Part shown: one piece after another, positions 24,276 through 53,230 of the stretch
Layout of the letters: every line of letters starts with the position of its first letter
Position numbering within the stretch: position 1 is the first letter of the stretch
Source: Acholeplasmataceae bacterium
GTDB lineage: Bacteria; Bacillota_I; Bacilli_A; Acholeplasmatales; Acholeplasmataceae
Length of the DNA: 64,000 nt
NCBI GenBank assembly: GCA_963675245.1
Contig: OY775910.1
Span: 1,536,001 to 1,600,000 of the forward strand
Reading direction: 5' to 3'
Translations under genes and position numbers: made by a program
The notes under the pieces: model-generated
The model's input: the letters and a program-made list of their open reading frames with translations, nothing else
Told to the model about the DNA's origin: nothing
The model's database searches: none

Positions 24276-24500
24276 AAAAAAAACGCCCTTAGAAAAATCT
24301 AAGGACGAATAATCGCGGTACCACCTTAGTTCTAGAATTGCTTCTAGCCCTCAAAATCTGTAACGTAGATAGACGCTGATAACTACTTATTTCACTATCA
24401 GAACTCCTTGGTGACGTTCATGACTGCAAGGACGATATTTCCACCAACAATCGCTCTCTTTAACGCTTAACGAGTCATTACTCTTCCAAATCATTGCTTT
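24276..24500 (-). ncRNA. T-box riboswitch with Val (GUC) specifier
   Basis: T-box AAGGUGGUACCGCG at 24327-24314; AGUA, AGAGA and GGUGG features in stem I; specifier loop GAAC-GUC-A at 24415-24413; terminator with a U run at about 24307-24276; promoter TTTACT-17-TATAAT upstream. Confidence 0.93.
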
Positions 24501-24543
24501 GACATTATTATACTATAGGTCATCCATTTAGTAAAGCGAATAA

Positions 24544-49072: not shown

Positions 49073-49296
49073 CTAATTCCCCTTATTTATGTCGTTCCCC
49101 CGTCGATAATTATTGAATTATCAAATAATAATCATGTTACTATTTTATTACTTTTTCTTCAAAAGTAAAGTGTTTTTTTTATTAAATGCGCCTTATCTAG
49201 ATGATTCTTTGACAAAATATGTAGGAAGTTTGACAAATCGAGTTAATTTGGTTATCGTTAAGGTAGATCCACGATTTGCAGAAAGGACGAACATAT

Positions 49297-50211
49297 ATGG
49301 AATTCTTTCTCGGTATAGATGGTGGCACATTAAAAACAGAAATCACTATAATCAATGCCCATAAGGACATTATTTTTGAATGTGTCACTGGACCTACAGC
49401 CTTAAAATCGGTTGATTTACAGGCGATTAAATCAACCATTAGAATTGCCTTAAAGCCATTTTTAGATGCCAATCAAAATTGTCATTTTAGTGGTGCTTTC
49501 ATTGGTTTAGATGGTCTTAACTTTTTGGCTGAAGCGATTGAAGTTGAAAGTATGCTTCACACATTACCATGCTTTAGCGAAGAAACGAAATTATATGTCA
49601 GACATAATATGGAAAACGCCCTTTACGCAGGACGTTGTTTCGAAGAAGGCATTGCGCTAATTGTAAATACTCATGCAATGGCTTTCGGAAAAGATTTGTT
49701 CCGAACACATCGCACTGGTGGATGGGGATATTATGAAGGTGAATTGGGTTCTTCATATGCTCTTGGGATGGAAGCCATGCAATACGTTATTAGGTGTTAT
49801 GATGGTCGTTACGATATTGATGAATTCGCAATCGATATTGCTAAAGCAATTGGACTTAATGAAGCATCTGATATAATACAGGTGATGTCAGACTTTTACG
49901 AAAGGCATTCTAAAGTGGCCAGCCTGGCACCTATTGTGACCATGCATGCCAATAATTTTAATCCTTATGCTATGCGCATCATCGACCGCGCAACTGAGGA
50001 ACTTGCTTTAATCGTAAAAGGTGTTTATCGTCATTTGAAATTGAAGAATAAAACACTTGTTATAAGTGGTGGTTTAGGGAGTTCAGGTGGTTATTTTAAA
50101 GATCAATTAGAAGCCAAAATTCTTGCTATTGATCCTGACTTTAGAATGATCAAACCACTTTTGAAACAAAGTCAAGCAGCCGCCTTAATGGCAAAGCGTT
50201 TAGCAAAATAA
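49297..50211 (+). CDS. BadF/BadG/BcrA/BcrD (N-acetylglucosamine kinase-like) protein with degenerate motifs
   Basis: Motifs LGIDGG..KT, GGWGY..GE.GS.Y.LG and SGGL; start 49297 follows GAAAGGA. Confidence 0.8.
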   Translation: MEFFLGIDGGTLKTEITIINAHKDIIFECVTGPTALKSVDLQAIKSTIRIALKPFLDANQNCHFSGAFIGLDGLNFLAEAIEVESMLHTLPCFSEETKLYVRHNMENALYAGRCFEEGIALIVNTHAMAFGKDLFRTHRTGGWGYYEGELGSSYALGMEAMQYVIRCYDGRYDIDEFAIDIAKAIGLNEASDIIQVMSDFYERHSKVASLAPIVTMHANNFNPYAMRIIDRATEELALIVKGVYRHLKLKNKTLVISGGLGSSGGYFKDQLEAKILAIDPDFRMIKPLLKQSQAAALMAKRLAK

Positions 50212-50215
50212 ATAA

Positions 50216-50316
50216 AGAAAAAAAGGACGAACAAGAGACCTGGGGGGGGATAGTCTGTTGTGTCCTTTTTTTGTTCATCATAGCGAACTATGATGCTGCG
50301 ATGCAAAAGGCATCCT
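50216..50316 (-). ncRNA. Candidate small regulatory RNA (~100 nt, three hairpins, C8 loop)
   Basis: Own promoter upstream, hairpins GAUGC/GCAUC and CAUCAUAG-UUCG-CUAUGAUG, and a terminator stem with a C8 loop and U7 tail; no ORF. Confidence 0.65.
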
Positions 50317-50321
50317 GACGT

Positions 50322-50350
50322 ATTGTAGCATAACTAGATTTTACTTTCAA
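50322..50350 (-). promoter_or_regulatory. Sigma-A promoter driving the candidate sRNA
   Basis: Minus strand TTGAAA-N17-TACAAT with an extended-10 TG. Confidence 0.7.
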
Positions 50351-50385
50351 GTATAAAATGATAATCTGATCTATTTTAAGCATCA

Positions 50386-50709
50386 TCAGTAAGTAACATC
50401 AGTAATTCGATCAATTTCAATACAGAACCCTTCATGGAATAAAAGCGTCTTGTTAAGCTGTGCATAAGTTTTAATAGTGCCATAAACGGTTTTAAAATAA
50501 CCATCTTCATAATAGGTGACAGAAATTTCTTTATGAGTCAACATGGCTTCTGTAACCATACGATTCAGCATCTCATATTGGTCATCTGATAACATGGGTT
50601 TGTCTTGTTTATCACGCTCATATCGCATAGTTTTAAGAACATCTTGGTAACTAATTAAGGCGTCAAATGGTGCCCATTTAATGATGCCACGATCTTTATA
50701 TTCACGCAT
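50386..50709 (-). CDS. YolD-like protein
   Basis: Motifs DRGIIKWAPF and KPMLSDDQ; start overlaps the polymerase stop. Confidence 0.88.
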   Translation of the reverse strand: MREYKDRGIIKWAPFDALISYQDVLKTMRYERDKQDKPMLSDDQYEMLNRMVTEAMLTHKEISVTYYEDGYFKTVYGTIKTYAQLNKTLLFHEGFCIEIDRITDVTY

Positions 50710-51967
50710 GATGACCACCAATACTTTCATTTCTTCTTTTCTCTGTTGAGTGATCTAATTCACTAGAAGCTCTATTAATACTGTTTGCCCCATGATGTGC
50801 TTTAATCCGATCAATTACATCTAAAATAGTTTCTTCTCTTTTCAAAGCATCTACGTCTTCAAAAATTGAATATTGATAGTGAGATTGTGTGGATAGTTTC
50901 GACAAAGAAATTCCCACACGTCTAATGGGTAACCCCTCATCATACATCTCAAATAATCGAAGACAACTGTCATAGATAGCACGCACGCTTGCTGTCGGCT
51001 CATCTAAGCTTATTTGTCTTGCAAAACCACCACCAAATTCTTTGGCATAACCAATTTGTAGTGAAATGCACTTTGTCTGCTTTTTAGCGAGTCTTAGCCT
51101 TCTGGTTACCTCATCAACCATCTCTTCAATAATTAAAATCACTTCTTCGCTTGAATAATCTCTAAAAAGCACTTGTCCTAAACCAAAGCTTTTTCTAATC
51201 TTTCTAACCTTATCTTTATCTTGGACCATACTCTTATCAATACCGTGTGTATGATAATATAGTTCTTCGCCTAAAACACCAAAGCGATCTTTTAAAAAGG
51301 TAGGATTACTCTGTGCAATATCACCAATACATTGCATACCTAAAACATTCAAATGATGTGCCATACGATATCCAATTCCCCACATTTTTGAAAGTGGTTC
51401 AACAGGCCATAACTTTTCTTTTAAATCATCATATGTCCATTTAGCTATAAAATCTACTGAGTGTTTCGCTTCAATATCCATGGCAAGCTTTGTCATCAAC
51501 ATATTAGGTCCTACACCACAGGTTGCATATAGTTCCATTTTAGTTCTCAATGCTTCCAAAATACGCCTACCTAACTCTACATCTGAACACTGATAATAAT
51601 TTAAATATGATGTCACATCCAAAAATGCTTCGTCTACGGAATAAACATATAAATCATCTTCTGAAATAAAGTCTAGATAAATACCAATAACCTTAGCAGA
51701 ATATTCAAGATAAGTTTTCATTTTTGGTTTTGCATAAATAATGTCCACATCCATAGGTAATTCATAAACACGACACCTAGAAGAAACACCACGTGCCTTC
51801 AAATATGGGGTCACCGATAGCACAATAGAGCCATTACCTCTACCTTTATCAGCTACAACTAATGGCGTAGTAAAGGGATCATAGCCCGCCAAAACACATT
51901 CAACAGATGCATAAAAACTTTTTAAATCAATACATAAAATGTGTCTGTTGATTTGGTATTCTTTCAT
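50702..51967 (-). CDS. Y-family translesion DNA polymerase (UmuC/UvrX/YqjW type)
   Basis: Motifs CIDLKSFYASVEC, YSVDEAFLD, K.AMD and WGIG; C-terminal GGH. Confidence 0.93.
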   Translation of the reverse strand: MKEYQINRHILCIDLKSFYASVECVLAGYDPFTTPLVVADKGRGNGSIVLSVTPYLKARGVSSRCRVYELPMDVDIIYAKPKMKTYLEYSAKVIGIYLDFISEDDLYVYSVDEAFLDVTSYLNYYQCSDVELGRRILEALRTKMELYATCGVGPNMLMTKLAMDIEAKHSVDFIAKWTYDDLKEKLWPVEPLSKMWGIGYRMAHHLNVLGMQCIGDIAQSNPTFLKDRFGVLGEELYYHTHGIDKSMVQDKDKVRKIRKSFGLGQVLFRDYSSEEVILIIEEMVDEVTRRLRLAKKQTKCISLQIGYAKEFGGGFARQISLDEPTASVRAIYDSCLRLFEMYDEGLPIRRVGISLSKLSTQSHYQYSIFEDVDALKREETILDVIDRIKAHHGANSINRASSELDHSTEKRRNESIGGHHA

Positions 51968-52098
51968 GGTTAATCCCTCCTTTGTGTATCCATTATAATC
52001 GGCAGATTTAATGAAAGCAATATGAAAATGTTAACATCAAAAAAAATATAAAAAGCCGATACAAATTATTGCACCGACTTTCTCAAATAAAGTGTCTA

Positions 52099-52524
52099 TC
52101 ATCGTTTCAAATAATCAATAAATTGCATCATTGATTGTCTTGTTGTTGTTTCAAATATAGCCTTGTCAGGTATATTGTCGTGTTCAAATTTAAAATTGAC
52201 AATCATCTTCCACACAAGCTTTCCTTCTTTTTTCATAAAGTGGTTAATACATCGATTAACGACACCTGGTACGCTATACGTCACATCAAACAGATTTCCT
52301 TCGCATAAATCCACGTGGACATTCATTTGCATTTCTCCATCACCTGATTGATAGATGAGTACACCTTTAGATCCTTGTTGAAAAAGTAATCCCTTTTCCT
52401 CATCAATGCGAATGAGATGAGGTTGCCATGCTTTCATGAACTTAGGATCAATGTATTTCAAGAAAGCTTCTTTTGGTTCAACATCTGCAATCACTTCAAC
52501 CACATAATCATAAATTTTCATCAT
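52099..52524 (-). CDS. Hypothetical protein, possibly SRPBCC/START-like fold
   Basis: Start follows GAGGAGG and overlaps the SRAP stop; KAWQP motif and C-terminal helix. Confidence 0.55.
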   Translation of the reverse strand: MMKIYDYVVEVIADVEPKEAFLKYIDPKFMKAWQPHLIRIDEEKGLLFQQGSKGVLIYQSGDGEMQMNVHVDLCEGNLFDVTYSVPGVVNRCINHFMKKEGKLVWKMIVNFKFEHDNIPDKAIFETTTRQSMMQFIDYLKR

Positions 52525-53230
52525 TTCCCTCCTCATCCATTGAAAATAAATCATGCATTTTTTCTTTTTCAATACATAATTCATCATCGTGAACCGGTGA
52601 GTTAACGTGACTAGATACAGGATACATCGATAAATCATCATCACGATACGGTTTTAAAACTGTTTTCAACTTGTCTTCTGCTTTAATCGCCATGTTTAAC
52701 CAGATTTTTTGACTGTTTTCATCTAGTATAACAGGCATTCTTTCATGGATATGACGCATGGGCTTATTGGCCGTAGTCGTAATGATTGCCACCGTATGAA
52801 CCAAATCACCATTCGCTCTTTTGTAGGTACTCCATAATCCAGCAAGTGGAAATATTTGAGATCCCTTTGTAAAAATACGATAAGGCTGCTTCGCTTTATC
52901 CCATTCGTAAAACGAATCAGCTAAAATGACACAACGTCTTAATCTAACTGCTTCCATAAAGCTTGGTTTACTAAACAGGGTTTCTGCTTTTGCATTGATC
53001 ATTTTAAAACCGATTTTTTCATCCTTGGCAAATGGTGGTACAAATCCCCATTTTAATAAACCTACTTGGTTTTTTTTGCCATCATTAATCACTGAGATTA
53101 TCTCTTGACCGGGAGCGACGTTATATCTAGGAAGATCAATGTCTGTATTAAATGATTCAATATGGTATTGCTCTTTTAAATAACCAGCAAGTTCACCTTT
53201 AGAAAATGTAAATGTAATTCGTCCGCACAT
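52508..53230 (-). CDS. SOS response-associated peptidase (SRAP, YedK/HMCES family)
   Basis: N-terminal MCGR; motifs RYNVAP, WG..P, INA.AET, FYEW and HERMPVIL. Confidence 0.95.
   Translation of the reverse strand: MCGRITFTFSKGELAGYLKEQYHIESFNTDIDLPRYNVAPGQEIISVINDGKKNQVGLLKWGFVPPFAKDEKIGFKMINAKAETLFSKPSFMEAVRLRRCVILADSFYEWDKAKQPYRIFTKGSQIFPLAGLWSTYKRANGDLVHTVAIITTTANKPMRHIHERMPVILDENSQKIWLNMAIKAEDKLKTVLKPYRDDDLSMYPVSSHVNSPVHDDELCIEKEKMHDLFSMDEEGNDENL

Follow-up and report, generated by a model that had tools for sequence, protein, structure and literature searches.

Between a yolD-like gene and a convergent gene for a BadF/BcrA-type ATPase, the minus strand of an Acholeplasma-like bacterium (Acholeplasmataceae) carries a segment that a first-pass annotation had marked as a candidate small RNA of about 100 nt with its own promoter, a UUCG hairpin and a C8 loop. 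We asked whether this segment is an independent gene for a regulatory RNA or the structured 3' end of a neighbouring transcript, and how such an RNA might act. To our knowledge, few regulatory RNAs have been described for Acholeplasma-like bacteria and their relatives, and our full-text literature search found no description of such an RNA in Acholeplasma. Positions given below are those of the window, the whole 64,000-nt stretch of DNA that was analysed, and the features are collected in Table 1. The sequence of the locus is identical across contigs of 3 sequencing runs from one study.

Promoter, fold and terminator of the unit

The promoter proposed for this RNA, TTGAAA-17-TGcTACAAT, is present in the sequence and was listed by our promoter scan, where it scored 10/12 with the TG. 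A generic promoter scan returned 57 sites versus 59.6 +/- 7.3 in shuffled sequences, i.e., not above chance. Sites of comparable quality (defined as TTG, at least 10/12, TG, and a spacer of 16-18) number 85 on both strands of the whole 1.63-Mb genome, and 49 of these 85 fall in the ~9% of the genome that a crude ORF map calls intergenic. By inspection of the sequence, there is no terminator between the yolD stop codon (50386) and the promoter. A cis-acting leader or attenuator was ruled out at this locus, as there is no co-oriented downstream gene. By eye, we also spotted GATTATCA, which resembles half a Fur box, ahead of the -35 box; it is not conserved in the sister species and was dropped.

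The 101-nt RNA extending from 50316 to 50216 folds into three hairpins with a minimum free energy (MFE) of -32.9 kcal/mol, compared to -16.5 +/- 2.9 for shuffled sequences (n = 200; z -5.66; 0/200 as good). This reproduces the three-hairpin fold of the first-pass annotation, including the UUCG hairpin and the terminator with the C8 loop. The first hairpin, GAUGC-CUUUU-GCAUC, would begin at +3, and its sequence is invariant in the three species described below. The last consists of A7, an interrupted stem (GGAC..ACA.GACU / GGUC.UUGU..GUCC) and U7 and, lying between the yolD and BadF-like genes, has the makeup of a Rho-independent bidirectional terminator. In both the MFE and the consensus folds, the CUUUU loop, closed by a C-G pair, and the loop AUCCCCCCCCA remain unpaired.

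As had been remarked, the C8 run stands out in this DNA. The genome has a G+C content of 33.9% and contains 10 runs of C or G of at least 7, among which this is the sole run of 8. Genome-wide, a C7+ loop run is found in 2/486 predicted terminator hairpins, the one under study included. The standard terminator scan missed the latter because it limits loops to 3-8 nt. We note that this terminator doubles as that of yolD and of the BadF-like gene, the stop codon of the latter being only 6 nt away from the U-run; the BadF-like transcript would therefore end in a complementary hairpin with a G8 loop. Rfam 15 yielded no match at the gathering score and none at E up to 10 for positions 50000-50600, in agreement with the earlier view that the RNA matches no recognised family, and no housekeeping RNA was matched in these searches.

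Table 1. Coordinates of the unit, its parts, its neighbours and a second unit of the same genome
Feature	Position	Strand	Basis or context
Candidate sRNA unit (promoter to terminator)	50350-50216	-	between yolD and convergent BadF-like gene
-35 box TTGAAA	50345..50350	-	promoter scan
Extended -10 box TGcTACAAT	50322..50330	-	promoter scan, TG flagged
Putative transcription start, A50316 or G50315	50315..50316	-	6-7 nt from -10 box
Hairpin 1, GAUGC / GCAUC, loop CUUUU (motif C-CUUUU-G)	50300..50314	-	fold and conservation
Hairpin 2, CAUCAUAG-UUCG-CUAUGAUG	50276..50295	-	MFE fold
Bidirectional intrinsic terminator	50218..50272	-	fold; terminator prediction on both strands
C8 run within the 11-nt terminator loop AUCCCCCCCCA, proposed seed	50242..50249	-	unpaired in predicted folds
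yolD-like gene, last in the umuC-like/yolD operon	50386..50730	-	Pfam YolD, 7.8e-17
BadF/BcrA-type ATPase gene, convergent	49276..50211	+	Pfam BcrAD_BadFG, 3.3e-19
Second orphan promoter-to-terminator unit, C7 terminator loop	G000:C1:157224-157379		same genome

Conservation in sister species and coding potential

Syntenic orthologues of the unit were found in 2/9 other species of the genus, both sister species within the Acholeplasmataceae (genomes G005 and G006). YolD identity is 66-67% in these two species versus 35-39% in the other seven. An exact-pattern scan of genome and metagenome contigs returned the two known sisters and one Planctomycetia contig, which we take as a chance match, and no further orthologue. 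Model R1, which was built for this RNA, gave 3 strong matches in 101 genomes, and its weak matches were unrelated hairpins, some with C-loops. Thus, the RNA itself is confined to three species.

Both sister species retain the TTG of the -35 box (TTGTAA and TTGCAT), with 4/6 of its positions invariant in the three species. Invariant positions account for 8/9 of the extended -10 box versus 4/14 of the promoter spacer; they make up 17/19 of 50316-50298, which contains hairpin 1, and 10/13 of the terminator loop, and fall to 11/35 between the yolD stop codon and the -35 box and to 1/6 between the U-run and the BadF stop codon. This is what an RNA gene preceded by a promoter would be expected to show. 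Of the 34 predicted pairs, 3 change on both sides across the three species, two of them in hairpin 2 in G005 (C-G to U-A and A-U to G-C) and one in the terminator stem. The loop of hairpin 2 varies among the species (UUCG / UUGAA / GGCAA region). The C-run is C7 in both sister species versus C8 here; in the sisters it is followed by AGG or AAG, and here the loop AUCCCCCCCCA is followed by GG. The first-pass annotation had reasoned that a lack of conserved promoter or stems in relatives would leave only a bidirectional terminator. Instead, both are kept in the two sisters, with compensatory changes. Bulk conservation was dropped as an argument for function, since the identity of the locus does not exceed that of adjacent coding DNA: a 100-nt segment of the locus is 0.84 identical to G006 and 0.76 to G005, compared to means of 0.75 and 0.74 for segments of the syntenic region, of which 14% (G006) and 44% (G005) are at least as similar.

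The first-pass annotation had also stated that the RNA has no ORF, and here it needs correction. The region is overlapped by minus-strand ORFs of 32, 43 and 44 aa, and both the -10 box and hairpin 1 lie within a further ORF of 17 aa; conservation at the protein level is seen for none of them. The locus might encode a small protein, either from a 17-19-aa ORF (MLQY[VE]RMPFA...), whose first 10 residues are nearly alike in the three species, or from the 43-aa hydrophobic ORF that runs through the terminator. However, neither ATG is preceded by a Shine-Dalgarno sequence (SD), and the conserved block shows no change at any of its three codon positions against a background divergence of ~25%, which points to constraint on the nucleotides. 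Past residue 11 the short ORF diverges in sequence and length, and the 43-aa ORF is frame-shifted in G006 by the change from C8 to C7 and has no ATG in G005. We consider a protein product scarcely credible, and the small ORFs were rejected as the product of the locus on the frame shifts, the missing ATG and the lack of an SD.

A family of RNAs with CCUUU and poly-C loops

The two-loop design of this RNA recurs well beyond the three species. A covariance model, R3, finds a family of such RNAs in 47/151 Acholeplasmataceae genomes (5 genera) and in 0/85 genomes of four sister families. Its members have a 5' hairpin with an apical C-CUUU(U)-G and a terminator loop of 11-14 nt in which C7-9 is followed by A(A)G. 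We extracted 25 units from 3 genera, with 20 distinct 5'-hairpin arms. They are 81-124 nt long and carry a TATAAT-type box directly upstream, at the distance seen in the RNA studied here. A CUUU-type 5'-loop motif, in the family (A/G)CCUUUUG(U/C), occurs in 25/25 units, and the closing pair is C-G in 22/25. The C7-9 run is at the same place in the terminator loop in 25/25 units as well, a count to be read with the fact that the units were found through a C7 pattern.

We fitted 20 units to the model, and in the resulting alignment, which is biased towards the structure and leaves out 2/7 units of genus g20 (below an E cut-off that excludes reverse-strand matches) and all 3 units of the clade of our genome (G000), 18/23 pairs change on both sides, a number reached by 0/500 shuffles. 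Of the alignment cells, 93.8% pair versus 72.5% in shuffles; slid controls give 35-47%. When all 25 units were aligned with MAFFT alone, the stems were out of register and RNAalifold accordingly returned 0 consensus pairs. Rfam contains no match at E up to 5 for 18 family loci. With more than 40 species and strong covariation, the family alignment can now be made into a curated RNA family. The pattern C7-N(8-24)-T6 is found in 48/101 family genomes versus 18/101 for G7-N-T6, although this difference might arise solely because runs of G are selected against in terminator loops. In other genera, terminator loops with a C-run are also found after a tRNA gene and after an ordinary ORF.

The surroundings of the family RNA vary. 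In genera g5 and g20, it is located between co-oriented genes, with no convergent partner, and the genes downstream of it have their own -10 boxes. A blastp survey of other clades found no synteny of the family RNA with yolD, umuC or BadF. In another clade of the genus, the RNA adjoins the 3' end of a convergent arginine deiminase gene. We made no link to that gene, for which there was one clear start region, without a G-run SD.

The other C7+ loop among the 486 predicted terminators lies in a second unit of our genome (Table 1), which is kept in the same two sister species (86% and 80%) and has a different upstream gene in each species. This unit scores 30-36 bits with R3, a better match than the RNA at yolD, and on sequence evidence it belongs to the uncatalogued Acholeplasmataceae sRNA family. 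It adjoins the 3' end of a convergent GDSL esterase gene, and in one sister species it is found behind a GH16-type gene, like the family RNA in genus g20.

How does the RNA at yolD relate to this family? In the genome-wide R3 search it was not significant, with 20.5 bits and an E of 1.4 in G006 and no match at E up to 10 in G000 or G005. A local search with filters off gave 20.4, 15.4 and 12.8 bits in the three species, and the hairpin that the model aligned to the family's 5' hairpin was hairpin 2 rather than hairpin 1. The RNA has in common with the family its bacterial host family, both loop motifs, i.e., the 5'-proximal hairpin with an apical C-CUUU(U)-G and the 11-14-nt terminator loop with C7-9 then A(A)G, and a sigma-70-type promoter directly upstream, recognised by sequence alone. 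It differs in having a third hairpin (hairpin 2 is missing in the family), an interrupted terminator stem, and A7/U7 that are paired. Because both loop motifs are present but the R3 score is below significance, we file it as a clade-specific relative of the family, a paralogue or a look-alike, rather than a proven member.

Readings of the locus and comparison with known RNAs

Our analysis indicates that the locus looks like a real, uncatalogued regulatory sRNA gene of an Acholeplasma-like bacterium, whose transcription and start site we infer. We favour, with moderate confidence, the reading of 50350-50216 on the minus strand as an independent sRNA gene whose product is a candidate trans-acting, SD-pairing RNA and a relative of the R3 family. 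It is conceivable that there is no independent gene, and that the hairpins are a structured 3' UTR of the umuC-like/yolD operon that merely stabilises the 3' end, with a bidirectional terminator that the BadF-like gene uses as well and a promoter-like site that is inactive or incidental. Consistent with this, the hairpins follow the yolD stop codon with no terminator in between, the A7/U7-flanked terminator is called on both strands, all three species have the unit in synteny with yolD and the BadF-like gene, and the bulk conservation of the unit is ordinary. Nevertheless, the extended -10 box and the TTG of the -35 box are kept, whereas the spacer and the stretch from the stop codon to the -35 box are not, and promoter sites of such quality are rare. 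Furthermore, the same pair of loops is found in units whose upstream neighbour varies, and is thus not the 3' UTR of one gene; the downstream genes in g5 and g20 use -10 boxes of their own; and termination does not explain an 11-nt loop with a conserved C-run. An explanation by a 3' UTR and bidirectional terminator only is weakened by these observations, and we judge it unlikely.

Two other readings accept a real RNA. The BadF-like mRNA, whose stop codon is so close to the U-run, would end in a hairpin that is the exact complement of the RNA's terminator hairpin, and the RNA could act as a cis-antisense regulator, with loop-loop kissing (C8 versus G8) controlling the 3'-end stability of that mRNA. 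The second unit at the GDSL esterase gene and the units of the other clade at arginine deiminase likewise adjoin convergent 3' ends. Such complementarity, however, is common to any bidirectional terminator, the convergent partner differs at every locus, and the family RNA in g5 and g20 has none, making an antisense role improbable. Alternatively, the RNA might bind or titrate a pyrimidine- or poly-C-binding protein, e.g., KhpA/KhpB, through its CCUUU and C-run loops. KhpA- and KhpB-type KH proteins are encoded in the genome, in which neither Hfq nor CsrA was found; the two single-stranded pyrimidine motifs are invariant on variable stems; and target prediction did no better than controls (see below). 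Against this, both motifs are complementary to SD-like sequences and resemble the 16S rRNA tail, which base pairing explains directly, and the C-rich Firmicute sRNAs documented in PMC4409812 and PMC4132741 act by pairing. We regard protein binding as quite unlikely.

In the favoured reading of a trans-acting RNA, the sigma-70-type promoter with its extended -10 box would drive a non-coding, three-hairpin RNA of ~100 nt that has a protective hairpin at its 5' end and the Rho-independent terminator at its 3' end. Hairpin 1 would present C-CUUUU-G, and the terminator hairpin AU-C8-AG, as single-stranded motifs in their apical loops; both motifs resemble the anti-Shine-Dalgarno tail of 16S rRNA (...CACCUCCUUUCUA). 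Acting in trans and without Hfq, the loops may serve as seeds that pair with G-rich ribosome-binding sites, in particular with the GGGGG-type SDs of this organism, for which the match to the C-run would be perfect, whereas pairing with the ribosome takes a G.U wobble. Such pairing would block initiation, possibly exposing the duplex to RNase III, which the genome encodes. Among the SD-bearing genes (n = 1171), 35 have GGGGG and 126 have GGGG; examples of G-run genes are G000:C1:1352464-1352853, 790207-791628 and 383058-384332.

Target prediction, based on duplex energy and accessibility over 1415 start regions, 354 of which gave a duplex within the length filter, ranked a gene for a 217-aa membrane protein best (G000:C1:1109518-1110171; AACCUGGGGGGUGAGAUAA; -26.6 kcal/mol). 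In G005, a base change in this target (CCU to CUU) matches the change of AGG to AAG in the sRNA. The G-run is also part of the upstream gene, where it provides the codons W-G-V. As 7/150 flank-shuffled seeds equalled the duplex, the prediction is not above controls, and the gene is a lead only. The earlier interpretation of a trans-acting translational regulator is therefore upheld in part: conservation, the lack of an Rfam match and the family-wide recurrence of the two-loop design favour it, whereas the best predicted target does not. The CCUUU and the C-run offer testable seeds, with GGGGG-type ribosome-binding sites as candidate targets.

A broader proposal, which we consider rather doubtful, is that the C7-9 run would define a dedicated regulon of genes with G-run SDs, including a mobile tRNA-Phe cassette array, such that the sRNAs outcompete ribosomes on about 3-10% of genes and act as a brake on newly acquired cassettes. 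In the array, GGGG-type sites are found in 10/21 genes versus 126/1171 genome-wide. If true, this would mean that Hfq-less relatives of the Mollicutes possess RNAs that mimic the anti-SD (two per genome here), and that the host gains a single post-transcriptional brake on new cassettes.

C-runs in apical loops are also a feature of sX13 of Xanthomonas, for which binding to G-rich sites near ribosome-binding sites has been proposed. That RNA has several C4-5 loops, in contrast to the single C7-9 in the terminator loop here, and is unrelated in sequence, size, promoter type and phylum. Closer parallels are offered by RsaE/RoxS and LhrC, although neither RsaE (RF01820) nor LhrC appeared in the Rfam searches of our locus or of the 18 family loci. 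By analogy, the most likely mode of action is that of RsaE/RoxS or LhrC, on G-rich ribosome-binding sites. In the account of RsaE/RoxS in PMC4409812, G-rich SDs are bound by several unpaired C-rich stretches of an RNA of ~100 nt, a layout like that seen here, and RoxS carries a repeated CCCCUUUGUU, which resembles the 5'-loop motif of the R3 family. In the sequence studied here, GCCUUUUGC occurs only once, the duplication of the RoxS motif being absent, and the main C-run belongs to the terminator loop rather than to a linker. RNase III is present in the organism, a further likeness.

The five LhrC RNAs of Listeria monocytogenes (LhrC1-5), as portrayed in PMC4132741, are short, of the Hfq-independent type, and combine a 5' stem-loop with a terminator stem-loop. 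CU-rich motifs are located in loop A, the linker and the terminator loop, and LhrC binds the G-rich SD region of its target through loop A and the terminator loop. In the R3 family, too, both the 5' loop and the terminator loop display a pyrimidine motif, and one clade of the genus has UUUCCUUC as its linker. The motif differs, however, being CCUUU plus a C7-9 homopolymer rather than CUCCC...UUUU, and in the RNA at yolD the two pyrimidine motifs are themselves different (CCUUUU versus C8). In addition, this RNA has an extra middle hairpin, i.e., its linker is a hairpin, and the genome contains two dissimilar units in place of the near-identical tandem copies of LhrC. If our reading is right, these Hfq- and CsrA-less organisms would follow the anti-SD logic that Staphylococcus, Bacillus and Listeria use, and their seed, an extreme homopolymer, would be located in the terminator loop.

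Predicted promoter, fold and surroundings of the flagged RNA

The flagged RNA lies in a 174-base intergenic gap (50212-50385) between two convergent genes. The minus-strand promoter and three-hairpin RNA that the first-pass annotation had described were both recovered by promoter scan and folding (see table), and its sequence observation of promoter, fold and C8 run was confirmed. The promoter scored 10/12 with an extended -10 TG, and the minimum free energy (MFE) of the RNA was -32.9 kcal/mol versus -16.5 +/- 2.9 in 200 dinucleotide shuffles, none of which was as stable (z -5.66). The element is single-copy in its complete, single-contig genome, where the unit lies at the 3' end of a DNA-damage-tolerance cluster.

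A generic promoter scan shows no excess over shuffles (57 vs 59.6 +/- 7.3). Sites of the flagged quality (TTG, at least 10/12, TG, spacer 16-18) number 85 across both strands of the 1,626,300-bp genome, and 49 of these fall in the ~9% of intergenic DNA on a crude ORF map; therefore, sites of that quality mostly mark real promoters. At a genome G+C of 33.9%, there are ten C or G runs of at least 7, and the flagged C8 is the single run of 8, in line with the earlier remark that it stands out in AT-rich DNA. Among 486 terminator hairpins predicted genome-wide by script, loops of at least 10 nt are uncommon (28), and only two carry a C7+ run, one of them in the flagged RNA.

The statement that the RNA has no ORF stood only in part: small minus-strand ORFs overlap the region, although none is conserved as protein. 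The frame of a 43-aa ORF is shifted by C8 versus C7, and one species lacks its ATG. No Shine-Dalgarno (SD) site precedes a 17-19-aa ORF that spans the -10 box and hairpin 1; in this ORF all three codon positions are unvarying, and the sequence diverges past residue 11. A peptide-coding reading was rejected on this small-ORF conservation.

Features of the flagged locus and of other sites discussed (plain five-digit coordinates are window positions; G000:C1, contig of the flagged genome)
Feature	Position	Strand	Basis or remark
BadF/BcrA-type ATPase gene	49276-50211	+	Pfam 3.3e-19
-35 box TTGAAA	50350-50345	-	promoter scan
Extended -10 box TGc-TACAAT	50330-50322	-	promoter scan; 17-nt spacer to -35
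Predicted 101-nt RNA, three hairpins	start ~50316	-	RNA folding
Hairpin 1, GAUGC-CUUUU-GCAUC		-	MFE fold
Hairpin 2, CAUCAUAG-UUCG-CUAUGAUG		-	MFE fold
Hairpin 3, interrupted terminator stem between A7 and U7, loop AUCCCCCCCCA		-	MFE fold
yolD-like gene	50386-50730	-	Pfam 7.8e-17; last of operon with umuC-like gene
umuC-like Y-family polymerase gene	50702-51967	-	operon with yolD
SRAP peptidase gene	52508-53230	-	further upstream of umuC-like/yolD operon
DNA-damage-tolerance cluster	50386-53230	-	SRAP peptidase, unassigned 181-aa ORF, umuC-like polymerase, yolD
T-box leader	24298-24503	-	Rfam, 131 bits
Second unit	G000:C1:157224-157379	-	outside window; only other C7+ terminator loop of genome
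Palindrome TGTAAA-N5-TTTACA	L051:1657-1690 region and homologues		just upstream of second unit's promoter
44-aa ORF	G000:C1:283201-283335	-	intergenic region otherwise empty
tRNA-Phe cassette array	G000:C1:772000-792000
Two tandem mini-units	L032 (G077), ~1400-1600

Conservation of the locus and alternative readings

Rfam 15 at gathering scores gave no match at the flagged locus, and a search of 50000-50600 at E up to 10 returned sub-threshold noise only (10 rows, best E ~1, RsaE and LhrC absent), bearing out the claim that the RNA matches no known family. The sole match of the window at gathering score was the T-box leader. BLASTN against 61 relatives found real matches only in two sister species of the same genus, G006 (81% over 142 nt, E 2e-31) and G005 (78%, E 5.5e-18), the remaining matches being short (E at least 0.0016); exact-pattern scans of two public collections added one unrelated contig only. 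In both sister species the element again lies between the BadF-like gene and yolD. YolD identity is 66-67% among the three and 35-39% to the seven other species of the genus, which places the three in a sub-clade by this measure. The DNA after yolD differs in those seven. In five of them (L036, L037, L038, L041, L042) a different conserved element, ...TTATCAAGAAGACGGGAGAGATATAGCTC...GGTGGTAA..., lies there with a promoter-like site and terminator of its own, ahead of an ORF that begins MIELQQLSKTFE; the element resembles a riboswitch or a leader.

Bulk identity of the 100-nt sRNA window is unexceptional: 0.84 to G006 and 0.76 to G005 against syntenic means of 0.75 and 0.74 (about 24-34 kb of mostly coding DNA), with 14% and 44% of windows, respectively, equally or more similar. 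The invariance pattern is the informative part. Across the three species, invariant positions make up 11/35 from the yolD stop codon to the -35, 4/6 of the -35 box (TTG retained), 4/14 of the spacer, 8/9 of the extended -10 box, 17/19 of hairpin 1 with its flanks, 9/20 of hairpin 2, 10/13 of the terminator loop (C8, C7, C7), 6/7 of the U-run and 1/6 from there to the BadF stop. Pairing in hairpin 2 survives substitution, with two pairs altered on both sides in G005, and the RNAalifold consensus has 34 pairs, three with double-sided changes and nine with one sequence unpaired. On the thin basis of three species, a pattern of this kind would be expected from a promoter followed by a structured RNA, and the promoter, stems and C-loop that the annotation had proposed to look for in relatives are thus kept in both.

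The stretch may instead be only the yolD 3' UTR with a shared bidirectional terminator. No terminator lies between yolD and the flagged stretch, which favours that reading; the retained promoter and stems speak for a separate unit. The RNA may also be a cis regulator of the convergent mRNA, which has a complementary G8 loop in its terminal hairpin, or it may bind a protein. C7-9 terminator loops are also found in other genera after a 195-aa ORF, a tRNA gene and another ORF, closing ordinary transcription units (L024 in G013, L031 in G077, L097 in G115, L098 in G108); such loops are either versions embedded in 3' UTRs or a trait general to these genomes. In one such genome, two tandem mini-units each consist of a TACAAT-type box and, immediately after it, a terminator hairpin with a C-rich loop, AAUCCCCCAAAC or CUCCCCUCCCC, the latter holding the anti-SD core CCUCC. 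The annotation's interpretation is partly supported: the flagged unit is conserved and structured, has a predicted promoter, and fits an uncatalogued family-level design.

A wider family of CCUUU/poly-C-loop RNAs

Weak matches of a first covariance model built for the flagged RNA (R1) drew attention to other genera with C-runs in terminator loops. The pattern C7-N(8-24)-T6 occurs in 48 of 101 family genomes and the control G7-N(8-24)-T6 in 18, an asymmetry for which selection against terminator loops with G-runs may be partly responsible; the bulk of the C matches are a few conserved sequence groups. We extracted 25 units of 81-124 nt: six species of the other g1 clade, nine of genus g5, seven of g20 and the flagged RNA from each of its three species. 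A TATAAT-type box is present in every unit, in most cases 17 nt from a TTGAC/TTGAT -35. Every unit also carries a CUUU-type motif in the apical loop of the 5' hairpin (mostly C-CUUU(U)(U)-G; closing pair C-G in 22) and a terminator loop of 11-14 nt with C7-9 then A(A)G. The 5'-hairpin arms come in 20 distinct sequences and the terminator arms in 9.

Since plain MAFFT alignment left the stems unaligned (0 consensus pairs), 20 units of three clades were instead aligned to a model that combined the nine g5 units with a structure written by hand. Paired cells reached 93.8% versus 72.5 +/- 1.4% in shuffles, in a model-fitted alignment that leans towards the structure, though the margin is large. 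In the same alignment 18 of 23 pairs were altered on both sides (0/500 shuffles reached that), the covariation score was 0.602 versus 0.222, and slid controls were 35-47% paired. Per-sequence MFE folds, independent of the fitted alignment, gave the same stems.

Model R3, built on the 20 aligned units, matched 47/151 genomes of Acholeplasmataceae at E up to 0.01: 8/9 in g1, 27/28 in g5, 7/8 in g20, 3/5 in g11, 2/10 in g12, and none in g2 (0/29), g14 (0/14) or g15 (0/19). Across an order sample it matched 16/55 Acholeplasmataceae genomes and none of those searched in four sister families (0/56, 0/5, 0/22, 0/2). At E up to 5, Rfam gave no match for 18 family loci. In the other g1 clade, the RNA and an arginine deiminase gene are convergent; the RNA lies between ABC permease and esterase genes in g5 and between GH16 (Pfam-confirmed) and response-regulator genes in g20; downstream genes in g5 and g20 have their own -10 boxes. 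By this context it behaves as an independent gene, of an uncatalogued sRNA family (L067-L069, L071, L073-L076, L079-L081, L090-L095, L101-L105). Some loci of g5 (L072, L099, L100) and g11 (L086-L089) carry a longer variant.

The flagged RNA is not demonstrably a member by model score. In whole-genome searches the best R3 match in G000, G005 and G006 was the second unit (30.1, 23.4 and 32.7 bits), and the flagged RNA was seen in G006 only (20.5 bits, E 1.4). With filters off on the flagged loci alone, it scored 12.8-20.4 bits across the three species (15.4, 20.4, 12.8), and R3 placed its hairpin 2, not hairpin 1, on the family 5' hairpin. In design it nevertheless shows every hallmark: a predicted promoter of its own, C-CUUUU-G in a hairpin close to the 5' end, and AU-C8-AGG in the terminator loop. 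It differs in having one additional, inserted hairpin and a terminator stem that is longer and interrupted.

The second unit (TTGAAC-17-TATAAT, ~125 nt, one-directional terminator with loop GAUUCCCCCCCA) is kept in G006 (86%) and G005 (80%), with conserved -35 and -10 boxes and an unconserved spacer. Its fold has 32 consensus pairs, six altered on both sides, and its long 5' hairpin ends in the apical loop CCUUUGA. The convergent downstream neighbour, a GDSL esterase gene, is conserved. The upstream neighbour differs in every species (a transposase-like ORF and a glycoside-hydrolase-like ORF, both by eye, and a 240-aa ORF), and the unit is thus not tied to any single gene as its 3' UTR. The palindrome upstream of its promoter, conserved in the three species, is a possible regulator-binding site. 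Because R3 favours the second unit, and because in G005 it follows a GH16-like ORF (by eye) as the g20 RNA follows GH16, we treat it as the clade's probable orthologue of the family RNA, and the flagged RNA as a putative clade-specific paralogue or convergent look-alike.

Proposed mode of action and comparison with known sRNAs

Both of the conserved, unpaired motifs are pyrimidine tracts. Their complements are AAAGG and G-runs, and they resemble the 16S tail of the organism (GAUCACCUCCUUUCUA). The exposed loops of the flagged RNA would bind SDs rich in G and so block initiation. On a crude map, 1171 genes show an SD-like start, with GGAGG in 319, GGGG in 126 and GGGGG in 35. The C-run would pair perfectly with GGGGG, where the ribosome would need G.U wobble, and would mismatch GGAGG; thus, it could select a subset of genes. 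A target scan gave one attractive duplex, but flank-shuffled seeds equalled it in 7/150 trials. In the tRNA-Phe cassette array, 10/21 genes have GGGG-type ribosome-binding sites, compared with 126/1171 genome-wide, and these are possible targets of poly-C loops. Elsewhere, a G7 SD (CCGGGGGGGCAATATG) precedes a 44-aa ORF whose N-terminus resembles a signal peptide. Hfq and CsrA were not found in the genome, which encodes RNase III and KhpA/KhpB-type proteins.

A full-text literature search, judged on listings and abstracts, turned up no description of such an RNA in the host group. The flagged RNA would join the C-rich sRNAs of anti-Shine-Dalgarno type known from Gram-positive bacteria of low G+C. 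C-rich regions of RsaE/RoxS pair with G-rich SDs, with initiation blocked and RNase III cleavage (PMC4409812), and loop A and the terminator loop of LhrC bind the G-rich SD region (PMC4132741), the latter loop being a notable parallel to the C-run terminator loop here. Distinctive of the flagged RNA are its host group and the placement of a homopolymeric putative seed in the terminator loop.
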